Positions 6,108 to 40,637 of a DNA stretch of 64,000 nt are shown one piece after another; position 1 is the first letter of the stretch, and each line of letters opens with the position of its first letter. Origin of the DNA: Ostreococcus lucimarinus. Taxonomy: Eukaryota. The translations under genes were made by a program, and so were the position numbers. Below the pieces are notes generated by a model that was not told the DNA's origin, did no database searches, and worked only from the letters and a program-made list of their open reading frames with translations. The DNA is taken from the NCBI GenBank assembly GCA_000092065.1, contig CP000581.1; one strand, written 5' to 3'.

Positions 6108-8195
6108 TTAAAGCTTGGAGACGCCGAAGTTACCGCGGCTCAGCTTTGGTTGCAAGAGCTCGGTGTATCCGGGTGGCGTGTGCTTTCTGTTGAACGGCGC
6201 CGCTTGTACTTCTTCGTACAGTCGGCGGTAGACGTCTCCATCCTTCGCACCGAGCGCGGAGTTTAAGAAATAGTCGTGCAGTCCAAAAGAGTCAACGAGC
6301 GCTGCCGCATCTGGTCGAATTTCAGACAAAAGTTTAAAGATTTCTTGTCGAATCTCGGCCGCTTGTTCGCCGTCGATGTGCCCGTCTTCCAAAAACTCAC
6401 CCATCGTGTCATCCATACCACACAAACCGTGAAGGCAGACGAGGCGATGCAACACGTTTAACGTTTCCGCACTCACTCGAGATCGAGTCTCGTCGTACGC
6501 GAGGACGAAATTATACATGACGACGAACGCGCAATGCGCCTTCGCCGCGCCGATCCACTGTACCATGTGTACTCGCATCGCTTCGTCAGGCGACAAATCG
6601 CCCGTCACCTTGGAGGCTTCCGTGACTAACCGCCACGCCCGATGGGCGTACGCATCGAGGATGGCCTTTTCATCGCGTAAACTTGCGCCGAGAGCAAGCG
6701 CGCTCCGAGAACTTGCACCGTCGAGATAACGGAGCGCGTCCACAGGTGGTTGGCCATTGAGCATTTTTCGGTGCGCCTTTAACAAATACCGAGCGGTTTG
6801 TAAGCAAAGCACGTTGTTGTCACCTTCATACGTCACGTTGGGGGCGTAGGTGGCTAGTGTAGTGCCGAATCCCGCTAGGTTCATGTAGCCGTGACCACCG
6901 CACGTTAGACGACATGCTTCGATGGCATCCTTCGTCGCCCACGAACAGTACGCCTTGAGCCCGCTCGATGTGGCGTGAAGCTCTGGAAGGGCGGAGAAGT
7001 CCTTTTTCTCGCGGGAGTCCCTCTGGAACTCAAAATACATACGGCGCATGTAATCAGACGTGCAGTGAAAGGCAAATGCCTTAGCGAGAATGGGAAACAG
7101 CGTTCGCTGGCTGTGCTGATAATCGATAACTTGGCACTCCATCCCCGTCACCTCGTCGGCGTTCGATTGCCGGCGAACTAAATTGTATCGAATCGCAATA
7201 GTGACGGCTTTCTTCATGTAAAGCGCGGCGTTCATAACGATGTCGGAGCGAATGAAGACCATCGTACCGTACGAAACTTTCGCCACCGGCGCTGGCACGT
7301 ACGTACCGTCGCGTTCAACCTTGGAGTGACCCATCAACATTGCTCGGCGTTGGACGCGAACGTGATCAAATCTCAGAAACCCGTTGTCGACGGCGTTGTA
7401 GCCCATCTTGTTACCGATATCACCTATCGTGCATCCTGGTAACGGCTCATGCGTCTTATTATCGCGAATTTGCACCACGAACGGATGCACGCCATGATCG
7501 ACGCCTTTGGTGAACAATCGAGCCATCACGACGGCGTGTGTGGACGTCTTTCCCAATCCGCCCGGCCACCATTTTGTGCTCGTCAACGTCGGCGAGTGCA
7601 CGACGAACTCCTCGCGCTCTTCATCATAAGTCGCCGTCGTTTCTAGCCCTCTCAAGTAGGTTCCATGTCCGAGCTCCGTCTGCGCGTACGTCCCCACGCA
7701 CTCCAGCTTTACGCACTTTGGAATCCAATACTTTCGCTGTTCCTCGTCCCCTTGCCCTTGAATTGTGGGAATGAACATTCCTAGGTGTAAGTCCAGCCCC
7801 CCGGGTTCGTCGATCAACTCCCGCATGATTCGCGCCACGGCGATGGGTTCTTTCTCATTCATGCTCGCCACCGCGCTCGGCAGCGCCAAGTACATTCGCA
7901 GCGTGCGCTCGTACAGTTCGTCCCGCTCGTCAAAGTACTTGCCTCGCTTACTGAACGCCTCGTTCGTCGTCATCACCGACGCGATTCGCTGACGCAATTT
8001 ATAATTATCCTTCCCTCCCGCGAGCAAGACCTCGAGTTCGCGCGAGTTGAACGACGCCCGCGCGCGCTCGAGTCGCAAATCTTCCTTCGGGTCGCTCGTG
8101 CTCGCCGCGATGACGTCGCTCGATGGTTCGACGAGCGCGCGTGTGTGCGCGTCCACGACGCGGTGGCCGCGACCATCGCGCGAGTCGTCGAGCAT
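6108..8195 (-). CDS. ACX: peroxisomal acyl-CoA oxidase
   Basis: The full ACOX architecture is present (N-terminal, middle and C-terminal acyl-CoA dehydrogenase/oxidase domains, including 'TELGHGTYLRGLET' and 'CGGHGY'). The C-terminal tripeptide is SKL, a PTS1 signal. Confidence 0.85.
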   Translation of the reverse strand: MLDDSRDGRGHRVVDAHTRALVEPSSDVIAASTSDPKEDLRLERARASFNSRELEVLLAGGKDNYKLRQRIASVMTTNEAFSKRGKYFDERDELYERTLRMYLALPSAVASMNEKEPIAVARIMRELIDEPGGLDLHLGMFIPTIQGQGDEEQRKYWIPKCVKLECVGTYAQTELGHGTYLRGLETTATYDEEREEFVVHSPTLTSTKWWPGGLGKTSTHAVVMARLFTKGVDHGVHPFVVQIRDNKTHEPLPGCTIGDIGNKMGYNAVDNGFLRFDHVRVQRRAMLMGHSKVERDGTYVPAPVAKVSYGTMVFIRSDIVMNAALYMKKAVTIAIRYNLVRRQSNADEVTGMECQVIDYQHSQRTLFPILAKAFAFHCTSDYMRRMYFEFQRDSREKKDFSALPELHATSSGLKAYCSWATKDAIEACRLTCGGHGYMNLAGFGTTLATYAPNVTYEGDNNVLCLQTARYLLKAHRKMLNGQPPVDALRYLDGASSRSALALGASLRDEKAILDAYAHRAWRLVTEASKVTGDLSPDEAMRVHMVQWIGAAKAHCAFVVMYNFVLAYDETRSRVSAETLNVLHRLVCLHGLCGMDDTMGEFLEDGHIDGEQAAEIRQEIFKLLSEIRPDAAALVDSFGLHDYFLNSALGAKDGDVYRRLYEEVQAAPFNRKHTPPGYTELLQPKLSRGNFGVSKL

Positions 8196-14370: not shown

Positions 14371-15225
14371 ATGTCCGCCACCGCGAACTCTCGCGCGTAC
14401 GTCGCTGACGTCAAATCCCGGTCTTCGTCCCGTGGACGACGCGCTGTGAAATCGCGCCGCGCGCACACCACGCCGCGCGCCGTCGGCGTGAGCGATGACG
14501 TCGTCACATCTTCGTCGTCGTCCTCTTCTGATTCTATCGAGAACGGGCCGTGTAAGATGAATATTTACGCCCTGGCCGCGTGTGCGGGACGCGGTGAAGC
14601 CGCGACGACGCAGCAGCGCGACGAGATGCGCGCGCTTGTGCGCTCGTTGACGAATCCCACGGCGGCGCCGGCGCGAGACGAGCGGCTCAACGGAACGTGG
14701 GAGTTGGTGTACGAGAGCAGCGGTTTTCCGTTCCGCTCGTCCCCGTTTTTTTGGGCCGTGGGTAAGCTCCTTGGTGAGAATGCTGACTTCTTTTACGGCG
14801 CGCACGAGCATCAGACGAGCATGTTTGGCGGCGGCTGCGGGACGTGCTTGCAGAAAATCTCCGAAGGCGCGCTCGAGAGCGACTGCATCGTCAAGGCTTC
14901 GCTGGGCGTCCCACTCCTCGGATTCGCCCCGCTTTTCTCTGGATACGGTTCCGTGATAACTAAGGGTACGACTCGGGTGTTGGACGACGACACGATCGCG
15001 ATGCCACTGGGATCTTTGTCGACGACGGTGCGGCAAGACGACGCCAATGTTTTGCCAGCGTTGAACTTCTTGAATGGCACCACGGTTCCCGTAGGCGACG
15101 TCATGGGTCGAATCGCCGATGGTGAGTCCGAGGTCACCATGCGCATAACTTACCTCGACGAGGACATGCGCGTGAGCGAGTTAGAGGACGGCACGCAGCT
15201 GGTCTATCGTCGACGCGTCGCGTAA
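14371..15225 (+). CDS. plastid-lipid-associated protein / fibrillin (PAP family)
   Basis: 'LNGTWELVYESSG' is the hallmark fibrillin motif (L.G.W.L.YTS). A Ser/Arg-rich transit-like N-terminus starts at 'MSATANS'. The ORF-track start at 13963 overlaps the SPT gene in another frame and is rejected. Confidence 0.7.
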   Translation: MSATANSRAYVADVKSRSSSRGRRAVKSRRAHTTPRAVGVSDDVVTSSSSSSSDSIENGPCKMNIYALAACAGRGEAATTQQRDEMRALVRSLTNPTAAPARDERLNGTWELVYESSGFPFRSSPFFWAVGKLLGENADFFYGAHEHQTSMFGGGCGTCLQKISEGALESDCIVKASLGVPLLGFAPLFSGYGSVITKGTTRVLDDDTIAMPLGSLSTTVRQDDANVLPALNFLNGTTVPVGDVMGRIADGESEVTMRITYLDEDMRVSELEDGTQLVYRRRVA

Positions 15226-15300
15226 ACATTCTTGTGCAATAAATTTAAGGTTGAACTCGACTTCGACTTCACCGCCTCATACGGTCGCGCGTCGTGTATC

Positions 15301-16707
15301 ATGCGAGCTTACGCGACGAAAGCAAAAGCGTGTGCGAATGTGTGTCGTGCGTCCGACGCTCGTGGCTCGAATCGGCCAACTGTCGCCGCGCGTCGACGTC
15401 GAACGACGACGTTGGCGCACAAAGATAAAGCCGACGTCGTCGTCATCGGTGGCGGACTAGCCGGTCTTGCGGCGTGTAACGAACTAGAAAAACGTGGGGC
15501 CGATTACGTTTTGCTTGAATCCAGCGACGATGTCGGCGGGCGCGTGCGCACAGACATCGTCGATGGGTTCTTGCTCGATCGAGGCTTTGCCATCTTTCTC
15601 ACTGGATATCCTGAGGCGCAGAAAGTGTTGAACTACGACGCGTTGGAGTTGAAGCCGTTTTATGCAGGCGCGGACGTGCGATTCAACGGTGCGTTTCATC
15701 GCGTGGCGGATCCGTTTCGTCACCCGCTGGATGGGTTACAGTCGTTGACGAATCCGGTGGGGAGCGTCGCGGACAAGGTGCTCGTCGGGCTGGTGCGATT
15801 CCAAACCTTGCTAGCGATGGGAACGCTGGATGAAATGATGTCAGCCGACGGAGAGACGACGATCATGAAGCGTTTAAAGGATTCTGGATTCAGTGATGAG
15901 ATGATTGATCGATTTTTTCGTCCATTTATGGCGGGGATTTTCTTCAACCGCGAGCTGACGACATCGAGCAGACTGTTCAATTTCGTGATGCGCATGCTTG
16001 CGACTGGGCAGAACTGTCTGCCGGCCAAAGGGATCGGAGCGGTGAGCGCTCAGCTGCGCGGTTATCTCACGGCTGACAGAGTTCGTGTGAACGCCAAGGT
16101 GACGACATTGAGCGAGCGAGACGCTGACATGTCTAGAACGCTCACGCTTGACAACGGAGAAACAGTGACGGCAAACAAGTCCGTCATCATAGCGTGTGAA
16201 GGGCCTGAGGCGGCCAGATTACTCGGTGGCTCCTTGGAGCAGAGTCCAAGTAAACCAGAGTCCGCAGTCGGCACGATGTGCCTGTATTTCTCCATGGACA
16301 AGGCACCAACGGATGATGCCATTTTGTATTTGGACGGCGACAACAAAGGGGGTATCGTAAATAATTGCTGCTTTCCCAGTAACGTGGCGCCTTCCTATGC
16401 CCCATCCGGGAAAGCGTTGGCTTCTGTGTCTATCATTGGTGTCCCGAGCGAAGACGACGCTAAGATGGAGGCCAAGGTTCGCGATGAACTTTCTTCGTGG
16501 TTTGGTGACGACCAAGTTGCGACGTGGCGTTTGTTACGCACCTATCGCATCCCGTACGCGCAGCCCAATCAAGAGCCTCCGACGAACTTTGCTCGTTCGA
16601 GCGTTTTAGGCAATGGATTATTCATCGCAGGCGATCATCGAAGCTCTTCCACGTTCGACGGTGCGCTCGTTTCCGGAAGAATCGCAGCAGAGGCGGCGAC
16701 CAAATAG
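15301..16707 (+). CDS. FAD-dependent amine-oxidase-family oxidoreductase, probably organellar
   Basis: The dinucleotide-binding motif 'VVVIGGGLAGLAAC...LLESSDDVGGR' is typical of the FAD amine-oxidase/PPOX-like superfamily. A transit-like N-terminus is present. The start could be 15232 or 15301. Confidence 0.6.
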   Translation: MRAYATKAKACANVCRASDARGSNRPTVAARRRRTTTLAHKDKADVVVIGGGLAGLAACNELEKRGADYVLLESSDDVGGRVRTDIVDGFLLDRGFAIFLTGYPEAQKVLNYDALELKPFYAGADVRFNGAFHRVADPFRHPLDGLQSLTNPVGSVADKVLVGLVRFQTLLAMGTLDEMMSADGETTIMKRLKDSGFSDEMIDRFFRPFMAGIFFNRELTTSSRLFNFVMRMLATGQNCLPAKGIGAVSAQLRGYLTADRVRVNAKVTTLSERDADMSRTLTLDNGETVTANKSVIIACEGPEAARLLGGSLEQSPSKPESAVGTMCLYFSMDKAPTDDAILYLDGDNKGGIVNNCCFPSNVAPSYAPSGKALASVSIIGVPSEDDAKMEAKVRDELSSWFGDDQVATWRLLRTYRIPYAQPNQEPPTNFARSSVLGNGLFIAGDHRSSSTFDGALVSGRIAAEAATK

Positions 16708-34979: not shown

Positions 34980-35034
34980 CAAAACAGCCTCCCTGGATTA
35001 GACCTCATTGCGCGTCCGCGTGCGTCGTCGCGAG

Positions 35035-36012
35035 ATGAACGACGATGTTGCGGGCGTCGCCACAAACGACACACGACATCAGCGTCCACCGAAGATTAAA
35101 TTGCGGCTAAACATTCCCGCGCGCGACGACGATGACGAGAAAGGACGCGCTGGAACGACGAGGAAACGAACGACGACCACGACCACGACCACGACCACGA
35201 CGTCGCGAGAAAACTCCATGAGCATGTCCATGGGAGCGTCCATGTCTTTGGGAGAGCACGGCGACGAACACGGCGACGAAGCGACGCAAGGGATGTCGTT
35301 CCTCTCGCCTCCGACTGGACGCCAAAAAAGGCACACCCACAGCCCGGCGACGACACCGATGTCGGTCGGAACGTCGCCAAGAATATCGTCGAAACGACCA
35401 AGAATGAGTAATGATTGGATTGAGGATGAAGTGCACCCGTCGATGGTCATGGGGACGCCGGGGAGCGGTGGCACGGCAGCGAAGCGATTGACATCGGAGA
35501 TCATGGCGAGCAACTTGTCGCAGCTCTTGAGCGTGTCGCCGATGTCGACAAATAACGATGGTGGTACTGCGTGCGCAGTTGATGAATCATGGACGTCGTC
35601 GAGCGCACCGATGTCATTTGGTGAAACCGTGAAGTCGTCAACGTCGCTGCTGAAGCGCACGCTGTCAGGGACGTACGGAGATACCACGGGCATGTTGATG
35701 CTGACGGCACCCCAGCTCGCCAAGTCACCAACAGAAAGCATGATGGTGAGTCATCACGGCGGCGGTGGTCTGCCTCCGTCATCACCGTCGGATCCTTCGC
35801 CAATTCACGATTTACGGAAAGCCGCACTCATGCGTTCGAGATTACTGAACGTTTCATCCGCTTTGCCGCCGCGAGCGACGCCTTCAAGCACTCGAGGGAA
35901 TCACTTGCAGCGTGGGTTCGTGCATGAACGTCCTCCGATTCACAGTTTAGGCGTTGGTACGGTTGATGTCGGTGACGAGACAGAGAGCGGAGAGAGGAAC
36001 GTAGCTAAGTAG
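35035..36012 (+). CDS. Ser/Thr-rich low-complexity hypothetical protein
   Basis: The ~325-aa ORF is disordered-looking, with poly-T from (acgacc)n. It may be a real nuclear protein or only partly coding. Confidence 0.3.
   Translation: MNDDVAGVATNDTRHQRPPKIKLRLNIPARDDDDEKGRAGTTRKRTTTTTTTTTTTSRENSMSMSMGASMSLGEHGDEHGDEATQGMSFLSPPTGRQKRHTHSPATTPMSVGTSPRISSKRPRMSNDWIEDEVHPSMVMGTPGSGGTAAKRLTSEIMASNLSQLLSVSPMSTNNDGGTACAVDESWTSSSAPMSFGETVKSSTSLLKRTLSGTYGDTTGMLMLTAPQLAKSPTESMMVSHHGGGGLPPSSPSDPSPIHDLRKAALMRSRLLNVSSALPPRATPSSTRGNHLQRGFVHERPPIHSLGVGTVDVGDETESGERNVAK
35168..35202. repeat. (ACGACC)n microsatellite
   Basis: 'cgacgaccacgaccacgaccacgaccacgacg'. Confidence 0.85.
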
Positions 36013-36211
36013 ACATTCATCAATAGATACACTGCATTTAGGGATTCGTTCGAGACTTCTTCACACACACCGTCGGGTAGTGCACCTCCTGAACGCACAA
36101 ACCCGTAACATCGCGAAATCGCGAAATCGCGAGTGGGGCGGACCTCATTTTGTGACTACGGTGTATATACCAGATGAAATGCTTAATAAGCGATCATTTC
36201 GTCGCCAAAAT

Positions 36212-36394
36212 GCTCGATTGGTCTAGTGGTTATGACGTCTGCTTAACATATACCGGCCTCCGCGCCACAATATGGACAAGCACGAGATTGCGATTTACTT
36301 CGCATTCTTACGTTTCTCAAGGAAAGCGCGACGCGAGTCGCGCGCTTCTAGCTTAACGCGCAGAAGGTCTCCGGTTCAATCCCGGAATTGAGTA
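36212..36394 (+). tRNA. tRNA-Val(AAC) gene interrupted by a 110-nt intron at the canonical 37/38 position
   Basis: Exon 1 (36212-36248) has acceptor GCTCGAT, U8, D-arm 'GTC-TAGTGGTTAT-GAC', anticodon stem TCTGC and loop TTAACA. Exon 2 (36359-36394) has the complementary GCAGA stem, variable loop AGGTC, T-arm 'TCCGG-TTCAATC-CCGGA' and acceptor ATTGAGT plus a discriminator A. A-box and B-box consensus are present, and TTTTTT follows. The sequence is similar to eukaryotic tRNA-Val(AAC). Confidence 0.7.
36249..36358 (+). other. tRNA intron (110 nt)
   Basis: It separates the two halves of the anticodon stem. Its 3' end repeats 'CTTAAC' from the anticodon loop. Confidence 0.6.
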
Positions 36395-36395
36395 T

Positions 36396-36401
36396 CTTTT
36401 T
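36396..36401 (+). terminator. Pol III oligo-T terminator
   Basis: 'tttttt' lies immediately downstream of the tRNA 3' end. Confidence 0.7.
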
Positions 36402-36488
36402 TGCCCATCATTTTACAACCTTTTATTTATTTCGACTCACTGCACCCCATACCGGCGGGGACGACAACGCCCGCTCCAGGCGTTTTTC

Positions 36489-37232
36489 TTGGGTGAACGC
36501 CGACGGTCGCGCGACACACACGGCGACGCGCGTGACATGTGTACCAACGGCGACGCGATGACGACGAACGATGTGATCGCGATTCAACGTCGTCGATCCG
36601 ACGACGACGCGCCGAAGACACCGCCGAAAACGCCAAGTTCTTCCGATAATCTTTTGCACGTCTTGGCGGGCTGGACGACGATAACGCCCGCGCCACTGGG
36701 CGACGACGCCGAGAAAGAAGACCAAAAAGACGATGACGACGACGACGACGACGCGCTTTCTCGGTGTACCACCACCAATCGGCGACTCGATCGAGATTTT
36801 GGTCGTCACGCCGAGCCCATCGACGACGGCGCGCTGACGACGCCGACGGCGCCGCCGCCACCGACGGAGCCGTTCCCAGCAAAAGGACGAGCGCTGCTGA
36901 ACACGCTTCTGCCGAATTTAAAGACATCGCCGTCAGAGTCACCATCGCCATCGTCTTCATCCTTAGCTCGAATCGAAGCTTTGCTGCAGGCGTTGGTCAA
37001 ACGCGTGGAAACGGTCGAAAGCAAGCTCGATGAGGTGCTTTCGAGATGTGACGAGCGGCAAAAACATGATGACAACGCGCTCGACGATGCGTGCGATGAT
37101 GATGACGATAATCATTTCCACACACCCAAGTCTGAACCGCGATCTATTTCGATAGCGTCGTCGCCGTGTCTCGTCAGAGCGTCGCCGTCGCCGTCCATCG
37201 TCAACGCCTTCGCGGAGCTCTACGTCTCGTGA
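36489..37232 (+). CDS. acidic coiled-coil hypothetical protein
   Basis: The 247-aa ORF has poly-Asp tracts and a predicted coiled coil 'LARIEALLQALVKRVETVESKLDEVL'. No family is assigned. Confidence 0.3.
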   Translation: MGERRRSRDTHGDARDMCTNGDAMTTNDVIAIQRRRSDDDAPKTPPKTPSSSDNLLHVLAGWTTITPAPLGDDAEKEDQKDDDDDDDDALSRCTTTNRRLDRDFGRHAEPIDDGALTTPTAPPPPTEPFPAKGRALLNTLLPNLKTSPSESPSPSSSSLARIEALLQALVKRVETVESKLDEVLSRCDERQKHDDNALDDACDDDDDNHFHTPKSEPRSISIASSPCLVRASPSPSIVNAFAELYVS

Positions 37233-38672: not shown

Positions 38673-40637
38673 CTACCAAGCGTCGACAAAATATCGACCA
38701 GTCGTTTCTAATTTAGTCATGTATCGTGCGCTTGCGTCCTCGTCGAGCAATCCTTGCTCGCGCACGACCTCCTGGATCGCTTTGTGCACGGCCGCGGGCA
38801 TCTTTTCTGCCGATCCAGCTACGAAGACTTTCGCTCCAGCCTCGAGCAAGGACCATATACGTTTCGCTTCATCCTTGACGCAATCTTGCACGTATCGCTT
38901 CTTCGCCTCTGGCACCATGCGAGAAAACGCGACGACAACACCTCCGAGTGAATCGCCGCCAGAACCAATTAAAGAGCCATCTTTTTCAATTTGTTTCCAC
39001 TCTTCCTTATATAAATAATCGTGCCGTGCGTGACGGCATCCAAACACGACCAATGCGCTTGCCGTGGAGGATTGCAGCACGCGTGCTCGAACAAAGGATC
39101 GAAATGGTGCGATACCAGTGCCCGGACCGATGAGAATCAATGGGGTCTCGGGTGGTGGTAAACTGATGCTTCCTTTGGTGATAGAGTATTTCACGCGCGT
39201 GCCAACGTCCAAAGAGTTCAGCCAGGAAGAACATAATCCTTTCCGCGCCCGTTTCATCGGTGTCACCCATTCCGCAGCGGCAACGGTGATGTGCGTCGCC
39301 GCCGTCCGCTCAGTATCCGCTGGAGAAGACGATATGGAATAATATCGCGGATGCAAGTGAGGAGCTACTTGCAAAAGCCACGCCAGTGACGGTTTTAACG
39401 ACGGAAAATCGTCGAATATTTCACACACCGTCCTTCGCTCGCGCTGATTGTACTTGTACAAATCCACAGCGCCCTCTGCCGAGGCAAAGTACTGAAGACG
39501 CTCCTTTTCGTGTTCGCTTTCGGCAAAATGACTCATGACCTCAAAAAAGTAACGTCTTGGGGATGCAGAATCCACATCGATCGCACCTGCGAGTAAGTAC
39601 TTGACCTGAATCAACGGGAACAATGCAGCCTTCGTCTCGGGCGCCGACGAAGGATAAACGCGCACCCAAGCATCCGGAGACATGCCCAGACGCTCAATCA
39701 GAGCCGAGACTTTGGCGTCGGCGGCACGCGTTGCGAAAGGTATCACGCCTAACACATCACCTGCTTCGTAGTGCGCGATCGAGGCGTCTAAGGTTTGAAA
39801 TTCTAGGTGACGAACCTCCTTGACGGCGTCGTCACTCGTCAAACATCTATTCTCACTCACGAATCCATCGTAATACGTTGTGTCGCGCGATTCGCGAGCT
39901 TCGTACTCAGCTTTTGAGAATGAAGTGCTAGCGTCGCTCGCATCAGCCGCCGCGAGCGCGAGTCGCAACGCCGTGTGTGCCTCCATCAGGCGTTCTCCGC
40001 TCGCCTCGACAATGCCCTCTGCGCAGGCAACCTCTTCCACGACGAATCTACAAGCGGGTAACGGCGCACTCGAGAGCTCGGCCTCGGTGAGGTCTTTCAA
40101 GTGCGGTGGCAACGGAAATATCTCGCGCATAGATTTCCACAACTCTCTCAACCACGGATTCAACGCCGCCTCGTACCCAAGTGGGTGCTGGTCATCTCCC
40201 AACCCAAGCGCTTCAATCGCGTTTGCCCCGAGCCCTTGCAGGCGCCGAAAAAGTTTTTTAGCGGTGACGTTATATTTTTGATATCCCGAATCGCCCAACC
40301 CGAACACGGCGTAGGACATGTTCGTCAGAGACGTCGCGGACAAACTCCGCCGCAGCAAAAATCTCCAAAAGCTCTTCATGTTCCTCGGTTCGTCACCCTG
40401 TCCTGTGGTGGACGTGACAAACACCACGCACCGCTCGCGAGGTAACGTTCGCACGTCATATCCCTCCATGGTCATGAGCACGGGGGCGTAATGCTTGAGC
40501 TTGGCCTCTCTCACGACGCGCTCCGCGACGTCTTGCGCGTTCCCAGTCTCCGAACCGTAGAGCACGAGCACGCGACGAGCGGGCGATGCGCCCGACGCGT
40601 CCGATGCGCCCGATGCGCCCGCGCCTGCGCTCACCAT
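38673..40637 (-). CDS. NDOR1: NADPH-dependent diflavin oxidoreductase (NDOR1/Tah18/ATR3)
   Basis: There is an N-terminal flavodoxin domain ('VLVLYGSETGNAQDVAERV'). The FAD/NADPH domain has 'RYYSISSSP', 'GPGTGIAPFRSF' and a C-terminal '...RYFVDAW'. Confidence 0.85.
   Translation of the reverse strand: MVSAGAGASGASDASGASPARRVLVLYGSETGNAQDVAERVVREAKLKHYAPVLMTMEGYDVRTLPRERCVVFVTSTTGQGDEPRNMKSFWRFLLRRSLSATSLTNMSYAVFGLGDSGYQKYNVTAKKLFRRLQGLGANAIEALGLGDDQHPLGYEAALNPWLRELWKSMREIFPLPPHLKDLTEAELSSAPLPACRFVVEEVACAEGIVEASGERLMEAHTALRLALAAADASDASTSFSKAEYEARESRDTTYYDGFVSENRCLTSDDAVKEVRHLEFQTLDASIAHYEAGDVLGVIPFATRAADAKVSALIERLGMSPDAWVRVYPSSAPETKAALFPLIQVKYLLAGAIDVDSASPRRYFFEVMSHFAESEHEKERLQYFASAEGAVDLYKYNQRERRTVCEIFDDFPSLKPSLAWLLQVAPHLHPRYYSISSSPADTERTAATHITVAAAEWVTPMKRARKGLCSSWLNSLDVGTRVKYSITKGSISLPPPETPLILIGPGTGIAPFRSFVRARVLQSSTASALVVFGCRHARHDYLYKEEWKQIEKDGSLIGSGGDSLGGVVVAFSRMVPEAKKRYVQDCVKDEAKRIWSLLEAGAKVFVAGSAEKMPAAVHKAIQEVVREQGLLDEDASARYMTKLETTGRYFVDAW

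Follow-up and report, generated by a model that had tools for sequence, protein, structure and literature searches.

The locus considered here raises the question of whether a tRNA gene whose two halves lie 110 nucleotides (nt) apart is a working gene, and how so long an interruption would be removed from its transcript. It is found at positions 36212-36394 (+ strand) of a 64,000-nt stretch of Ostreococcus lucimarinus DNA (contig CP000581.1 of assembly GCA_000092065.1), referred to below as the window, and it carries the parts of a tRNA-Val with the anticodon AAC. The locus is very probably a functional nuclear tRNA-Val(AAC) gene, likely present in single copy, with a canonical intron of 110 nt that is spliced by proteins. 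The anatomy of the gene, the pattern of its conservation and its synteny are observed directly, and every sequence-level feature of a eukaryotic intron-containing tRNA gene is found. The gene is an ordinary member of an already known class, and long tRNA introns are a known trait of its genus.

The detection of this gene depends on how it is searched for. With default settings, ARAGORN found no tRNA across the window. When introns were allowed (-i0,300), the program returned one gene only, a tRNA-Val(aac) at 36211-36396 with an intron of 110 nt, and the spliced 73-mer, given to it without the intron, was also called tRNA-Val(aac). The same settings applied to 60 dinucleotide shuffles of the window produced 2 calls, or about 0.03 per window. 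Moreover, a search of both strands for TTCRANY loops enclosed by 5-bp stems revealed a single T-arm-like motif in the window, which is the T arm containing the B box of this gene. Because the shuffle rate is so low, the T-arm motif is the only one and the exons are perfectly conserved across species, a chance origin of the call is excluded.

Rfam gave no match to the whole window in gathering mode and none to 36100-36500 at E<=10, a miss that is expected because the 110-nt insertion splits the tRNA. The syntenic orthologue of O. tauri, which has 63 positions in common with the spliced 73-mer, offers a calibration. It matches RF00005 with 57.9 bits (E 2e-12) in e-value mode, well over the gathering score of 29, and gathering mode returned nothing for the region that holds it (L057 14200-14500). 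As gathering mode is blind to this intact tRNA, the silence of Rfam has no weight on the absence of a tRNA. For tRNAscan-SE, the default limit for intron plus variable region is 116 nt, which the present gene, with 110 + 5, would barely pass. Default scans overlook the gene, as ARAGORN without its intron option and Rfam both came back empty; where each anticodon is served by about one gene, as in this genome, an overlooked gene would mimic a decoding gap.

The gene is collinear and split once (Table 1). Its 5' exon reads GCTCGAT TG GTCT AGTGGTTA TGAC G TCTGC TTAACA, and its 3' exon reads C GCAGA AGGTC TCCGG TTCAATC CCGGA ATTGAGT A. Together, the exons provide an acceptor stem of 7 bp (two of them G-U pairs), a D stem made up of U13.U22 and three Watson-Crick pairs, the anticodon stem TCTGC/GCAGA and a T stem of 5 bp with the loop TTCAATC. 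The conserved tRNA nucleotides U8, A14, G18G19, U33, G53, T54-T55-C56, A58 and C61 are all found. Eukaryotic valyl-tRNA synthetases rely on A35-C36 of the anticodon and the discriminator base A73 as identity elements, and both are present, the former within the anticodon at 36245-36247 and the latter at 36394. The A box follows the consensus TRGYNNARNNG. The sequence-only reading that first drew attention to the locus described intact A and B boxes and a T6 terminator, which is borne out, and the tRNA-Val genes of relatives likewise have T-runs 3' of the gene. The two strands of the anticodon stem, which that reading had put at 115 nt from each other, are 117 nt apart, as six loop nucleotides, the 110 nt of the intron and one further nucleotide lie between them.

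The strongest argument for a working gene comes from comparison with relatives. Syntenic regions were taken via orthologues of a nearby diflavin reductase, and metagenomes were scanned with a pattern of the D arm and the anticodon arm, which matched 43 loci. The exons are identical to those of the window (73/73) in four loci with an intron of 85 nt (L013, L027, L029 and L034), and the same exons flank an intron of 82 nt in five others (L023, L031, L046, L051 and L055) and in the syntenic L058 and L059, and one of 80 nt in L030. Thus, 37/37 positions of the 5' exon and 36/36 of the 3' exon are shared between the window and relatives with introns of 80-85 nt. Reductase identity between these lineages and the window is just about 67%, and the 150 nt on each side of the tRNA gene cannot be aligned between the window and the sister lineages. 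Invariant exons between saturated flanks and around variable introns are the signature of a working gene.

None of the 43 metagenome loci is an intronless gene with the exons of the window. A pseudogene reading would have been favored by a better tRNA-Val(AAC) copy together with a broken cloverleaf in this one; instead, the cloverleaf is intact and no intronless copy with the same exons came to light in the metagenomes. As no such copy was found in the metagenomes and the tRNA gene count of O. lucimarinus is only 44 (PMC3673656), the window gene is probably, judging from these sequence surveys, the sole source of tRNA-Val(AAC) in this species. The species itself is well covered, as more than 700 data blocks from marine metagenomes contain a reductase protein identical to that of the window. 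Among five conspecific metagenomic copies, only 1 of 2183 aligned positions varies, and it lies outside the tRNA gene; their intron is identical to that of the window, and the comparison is uninformative about population variation. Viral contigs were also considered as carriers of the gene and rejected. The exon pattern matches just one giant-virus metagenome-assembled genome, in which the gene is unrelated, intronless and of low GC content. That genome, GVMAG-M-3300017971-33 (L035, L049, L053, L063 and L064; GC 22-32%), has a tRNA-Val(AAC) that lacks an intron and fits the pattern used for the D arm and the anticodon arm.

The exact position of the intron follows from the same comparison. The direct repeat GCTTAAC occurs at 36241-36247 and again at 36351-36357, with starts 110 nt apart, and because of these 7 nt the boundary is ambiguous between 36/37 and 37/38 when the window is considered alone. 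The placement chosen by ARAGORN (36/37) would give the loop UUAACGC, with a G37 unique among relatives, whereas placement at 37/38 gives UUAACAC with A37. Since all relatives, intronless and intron-bearing alike, carry A37-C38, the intron is assigned to 37/38, in agreement with the initial proposal of a tRNA-Val(AAC) split there by 110 nt.

This position brings the features of a eukaryotic splicing substrate into place. U32-A35 of the 5' exon and intron positions -6 to -3 are able to form a central helix of 4 bp, in which U32:A-3 constitutes the anticodon-intron pair, and the 3' splice site falls in a 3-nt bulge (C-2, G-1 and C38) closed by the anticodon stem. The anticodon-intron pair and the bulge at the 3' splice site are used by the eukaryotic endonuclease (PMC4090602). 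Among nine distinct intron variants, of 110, 85 (two), 82, 80, 92 and 42 nt (two) together with an unrelated intron of 17 nt, all nine end in T-A-R-N-N before N38, so pairing with U32-U33-A34 and the 3-nt bulge are preserved throughout. In the other variants the central helix is only 3 bp long, with A35 mismatched. On the 5' side, C36-A37-U+1 could make a second 3-nt bulge, with A+2 facing C-7. Because this bulge is unclosed, the junction is hBH-like and not a full bulge-helix-bulge (BHB), and hBH motifs are what green-algal 37/38 junctions form (PMC3978253).

Two proposals about the repeat and its surroundings can be judged on this basis. The duplication of CTTAAC at the 3' end of the intron had been read as part of a BHB-like splicing structure; the TTAA/TTAA helix with its 3' bulge stands, the full BHB does not, and the duplication is explained by the self-complementarity of TTAA. 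The adjacent CTTCT/AGAAG helix, assigned to the same structure, pairs 36345-36349 with 36362-36366 (the intron element is complementary to exon A41-G45) and occupies A41-A43 of the anticodon stem. It lies, for this reason, outside the splicing motif and excludes the anticodon stem, with which it competes. As a separate observation, CCTTCT is also found in the introns of L013 and L023 at another intron position, which may be coincidence or a conserved alternative pairing.

If the gene is expressed as its sequence suggests, RNA polymerase III would initiate through the A and B boxes and stop at the T6 run, yielding a precursor of about 190 nt. The mature domain would fold into its acceptor, D and T arms and the anticodon stem, U32-A35 would pair with the intronic TTAA, and C-2, G-1 and C38 would be left in the 3-nt bulge. 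The eukaryotic tRNA splicing endonuclease (Sen complex) would measure from the mature domain and use the anticodon-intron pair, cutting 3' of A37 and 5' of C38. tRNA ligase would then join the halves into a 73-nt tRNA with the anticodon loop UUAACAC, CCA would be added, and A34 would presumably be deaminated to inosine. Transcription, the cleavage sites, ligation and base modification are all predictions of this model.

Several points weigh against the view of a functional, protein-spliced gene. Expression and splicing are predicted from the sequence. The A and B boxes are separated by an unusually large gap of 143 nt because the intron sits between them; the usual distance is 30-60 nt, and a gap so far above it could reduce transcription. 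A second tRNA-Val(AAC) gene with different arms may exist elsewhere in the genome. No helix forms that would close the bulge at the 5' splice site, and constrained folds pull C36-A37-U+1 into the first intron hairpin. In addition, the naked precursor is predicted to pair otherwise than splicing would need: the anticodon stem has a pair probability of about 0.08, TTAA/TTAA one of about 0.001 and CUUCU:AGAAG one of about 0.47, and in the minimum free energy (MFE) fold CUUCU:AGAAG displaces the anticodon stem, with the TTAA/TTAA helix never formed. The folding check suggested at the outset thus gives a divided answer. The cloverleaf-constrained fold lies only 1.6 kcal/mol above the MFE (-60.2 vs. 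-61.8 kcal/mol), and enforcing both the cloverleaf and the TTAA helix costs 4.8 kcal/mol, while the helix itself is not predicted. Folding of the naked RNA neither supports nor excludes a spliceable form; the case therefore rests on conservation.

Table 1. Features of the tRNA-Val(AAC) gene in the window and of the syntenic locus in Ostreococcus lineages (window positions unless a locus is named).
Feature	Position	Strand	Basis or remarks
TATATA, candidate TATA-like element (tentative)	36164-36169	+	43-48 nt 5' of the mature end; not kept in relatives
5' exon, tRNA positions 1-37	36212-36248	+	ARAGORN; acceptor 5' strand, D arm, TCTGC, loop U32 U33 A34 A35 C36 A37
A box, TGGTCTAGTGG, internal RNA polymerase III promoter	36219-36229	+	sequence; matches the consensus
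Exon strand of the anticodon-intron helix, U32 U33 A34 A35	36243-36246	+	complementary to 36353-36356 (TTAA/TTAA)
Intron, 110 nt, position 37/38	36249-36358	+	
Predicted hairpin 1, CAUAU...AUAUG, inner GGC/GCC	36247-36274	+	cloverleaf-constrained fold
Long imperfect hairpin	~36278-36315	+	pair probability 0.97-1.0
GC-rich hairpin GCGCGAC-GCGA-GTCGCGC	36326-36343	+	pair probability 1.0
Intron strand of the anticodon-intron helix, TTAA, positions -6 to -3	36353-36356	+	sequence and conservation table
3' exon, tRNA positions 38-73	36359-36394	+	C38, GCAGA, variable loop AGGTC, T arm, acceptor 3' strand, discriminator A73
B box, GGTTCAATCCC, internal RNA polymerase III promoter	36373-36383	+	sequence
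T6 RNA polymerase III terminator	36397-36402	+	sequence; 3 nt past the discriminator
O. lucimarinus	window		intron 110 nt
Sister lineages	L058/L059, L013		introns 82, 85 nt
Most divergent lineage	L009/L010		intron 42 nt; exons diverged, acceptor GCACCGT
O. tauri (CAID01000016.2)	L057 14324-14397		no intron
Relative of O. tauri	L060 7895-7969		no intron
Relative of O. mediterraneus	L062 14648-14723	-	no intron

Across Ostreococcus lineages, the tRNA gene stays between the same neighbors, and its intron varies (Table 1). The presence or absence of an intron at one locus and its variation in length (0, 42, 82, 85 and 110 nt) are a modest side result that is possibly new, and the series makes a compact natural data set on intron loss, resizing and retained spliceability. 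For the shortest intron at this locus (42 nt), at 6657-6774 (-) of L009 and also in L010, ARAGORN reports a tRNA-Ser(aga) and puts the intron at a non-canonical position. This call was rejected, as the gene, inspected by eye, is a tRNA-Val(AAC) whose 42-nt intron sits at the canonical place (TCTCG TTAACA / intron / C CGAGA). The 42-nt and 82-nt introns show no significant homology and the tree of the single reductase protein is star-like, which leaves neither repeated loss of the intron (two or more times) nor its gain favored. Gene orientation flips between lineages: relative to the reductase, it is opposite to that of the window, L009 and L062 in L013 (6154-6311, +), L058 (14490-14647, +) and L057 (+). 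The flanks are too diverged to place the boundaries of the inversion. The Val family of O. tauri appears intron-free; a legend in PlantRNA, "minus 5 = A, E, Mi, V, W" (PMC3531208), fits an intron-free Val only if the list refers to O. tauri and not to C. reinhardtii. Separately, an O. mediterraneus-type contig (L011) has at the syntenic site of the tRNA an open reading frame (ORF) of 512 amino acids (aa) with Harbinger-type transposase domains (Plant_tran, DDE_Tnp_4) at 14711-16249, and no tRNA-Val is found within the recovered part of that contig.

The body of the intron is less easily interpreted than its ends. The apical stem of the long hairpin consists of TGCGA (36289-36293) and TCGCA (36300-36304) around the loop TTTACT. 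Hairpin 1 belongs to a 5' stretch of about 28 nt that has no counterpart in the introns of 80-85 nt according to the alignment, and the sister introns have a single long hairpin close to their 5' end. In a lenient global alignment, the window intron resembles the sister introns no better than shuffles do (z = 1.5 and -0.1), and under strict local alignment the p values are 0.03 and 0.015. Block-chaining alignment relates intron positions 29-68 to the 85-nt intron of L013 (p ~0.006-0.009) and positions 75-99 (36323-36347) to the core hairpin of the 82-nt intron of L023 (p ~0.003). Two segments of the window intron resembling one ancestral hairpin hint at an internal duplication, and a self-alignment of the intron aimed at duplicated hairpin modules is not significant (p = 0.07). 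Outside its splicing motif, the intron is best read as consisting mostly of lineage-specific hairpins, that is, as tolerated, structure-compatible filler that grew in this lineage, possibly through duplication of a hairpin module.

An alternative that is compatible with a functional, normally spliced gene is that the intron has a function of its own, its hairpin core acting as an RNA that is stable after excision, in linear or circular form, or as an element of processing or quality control. In another tRNA family and another lineage, a Drosophila tRNA-Tyr gene has a 113-nt intron that is circularized and stable once excised. Here, RNAalifold recovers six apical pairs kept in three lineages, two of which show compensatory double substitutions; by itself, the intron has a better fold than its shuffles (z = -2.5); segments of it align with the core hairpin found in sister lineages (p ~0.009 and ~0.003); and several lineages maintain long introns. 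These lineages, however, amount to just three effectively independent sequences, and the overall similarity to the sister introns is weak by both global and local alignment. The small RNA that the sequence-only reading thought the intron might harbor found no support: no Rfam match was obtained at E<=10, and neither a C box (RUGAUGA / TGATGA) nor a D box (CUGA / CTGA) is present in 36249-36358. Dicer and Argonaute, moreover, are reportedly missing from O. tauri (PMC7671301). Because the syntenic gene is intronless in O. tauri and two other lineages, any role of the intron is dispensable. An intron with its own function is accordingly unlikely, and the more specific claim that compensatory changes have kept its core as a functional RNA, either an excised or circular RNA or a checkpoint in tRNA-Val maturation, is to be held as quite unlikely. 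If it were true, the series of 0, 42, 82, 85 and 110 nt would record the gain, the growth by module duplication and the loss of a functional element within one genus.

A second alternative concerns the mechanism of removal, namely, splicing through a strict BHB of the archaeal type rather than through the ruler of the eukaryotic enzyme, as proposed for Cyanidioschyzon merolae. The perfect TTAA/TTAA helix of 4 bp lies between two possible 3-nt bulges, exactly where such a motif would be expected, and Ostreococcus processes permuted tRNA genes via BHB-like junctions (PMC3978253). Nevertheless, the 5' bulge lacks the closing h' helix, A+2 facing C-7, and the A35 mismatch leaves every other intron variant with a central helix of only 3 bp. 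The intron sits at the canonical position, and green-algal junctions at 37/38 are of the hBH type, the substrate of the eukaryotic enzyme (PMC3978253). A strict BHB is thus a very improbable basis for splicing here.

Several known systems invite comparison. Archaeal tRNA-Trp introns share with the window intron their length (65-105 nt), the 37/38 position and internal structure, but they carry C/D boxes, guide methylation and form a strict BHB, whereas the window intron is devoid of C/D boxes and hBH-like. The permuted tRNA genes of Ostreococcus and Micromonas occur in the same organisms, use the same 37/38 junction and presumably the same endonuclease; they differ in that the window gene has its halves in the normal order on one strand, 36212-36248 (5') before 36359-36394 (3'). 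Group I introns, as in the cyanobacterial and plastid tRNA-Leu (UAA), likewise interrupt the anticodon loop, where they are placed between positions 34 and 35. Such introns exceed 200 nt and splice themselves as ribozymes, in contrast to the nuclear, 110-nt window intron, which has no ribozyme match. The window gene, in short, qualifies neither as permuted nor as the carrier of a strict archaeal BHB intron, a host intron for C/D-box RNA or a self-splicing group I or II intron.

TTAA is a known transposon target site, and a pseudogene broken by insertion, for instance of a 106-nt element at TTAA with target-site duplication and a TTAACGC loop upon excision, would account for the GCTTAAC repeat on both sides of the intron, for the placement at 36/37 by ARAGORN and, in the O. 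mediterraneus-type contig, for a Harbinger-like transposase at the syntenic site. This explanation is scarcely credible, given that the sister introns lie at the same position without a TTAA duplication (...TAATC/C and ...TAATA/C), that terminal inverted repeats are absent (CATATACCGG compared with the reverse complement of the 3' end, GCTAGAAGCG), that the restored gene would have G37 where all relatives have A37, that the exons are conserved at 73/73 positions across species with no intact replacement copy among the 43 metagenome loci, and that the window holds no further copy of the intron sequence. In particular, the 5' segment of the intron has no other copy in the window, and the GC-rich hairpin is not a high-copy repeat there, with only loose CG-rich look-alikes.

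What remains is a spliced tRNA-Val(AAC) gene whose closest parallels lie in its own group. The intron-containing tRNA genes of O. tauri and the Mamiellophyceae have the same 37/38 position, an hBH-type junction and long introns (PMC13578239), and their minimal, mostly single-copy tRNA sets resemble that of O. lucimarinus (44-47 genes). The tRNA introns of O. tauri are unusually long, at about 64 nt (PMC13578239), a figure well exceeded by the 110 nt seen here. Canonical eukaryotic tRNA introns span 6-133 nt (PMC4090602), and the long ones, including those above 100 nt, also occupy the canonical position and are spliced by protein enzymes. To call the intron unusually long, as was done initially, is therefore fair with respect to eukaryotes in general, though not with respect to this documented range or to a genus known for long tRNA introns. 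The tRNA set of O. lucimarinus has been catalogued (PMC3673656), and its genome has been available since 2007. As a normal case of a described class, the gene is of small importance for wider biology.

The surroundings of the gene add some minor observations. It is placed between two ORFs on the + strand (35008-36012 and 36489-37232), and the opposite strand bears no recognizable feature at the tRNA gene. About 80 nt 5' of the gene, a tandem repeat, (ATCGCGAA) x3, covers 36110-36133, with similar CG-rich motifs nearby. The diflavin reductase ORF (38673-40637, -; 654 aa) lies 2.3 kb from the tRNA gene and is uninterrupted. It is identical at 633/633 positions to XP_001415838.1 of O. lucimarinus CCE9901 over the shorter, 633-aa model, which assigns the window to that species or a near-identical strain; the sole difference is that this model omits 21 in-frame residues as an intron, and the gene model of XP_001415838.1 may thus be wrong.

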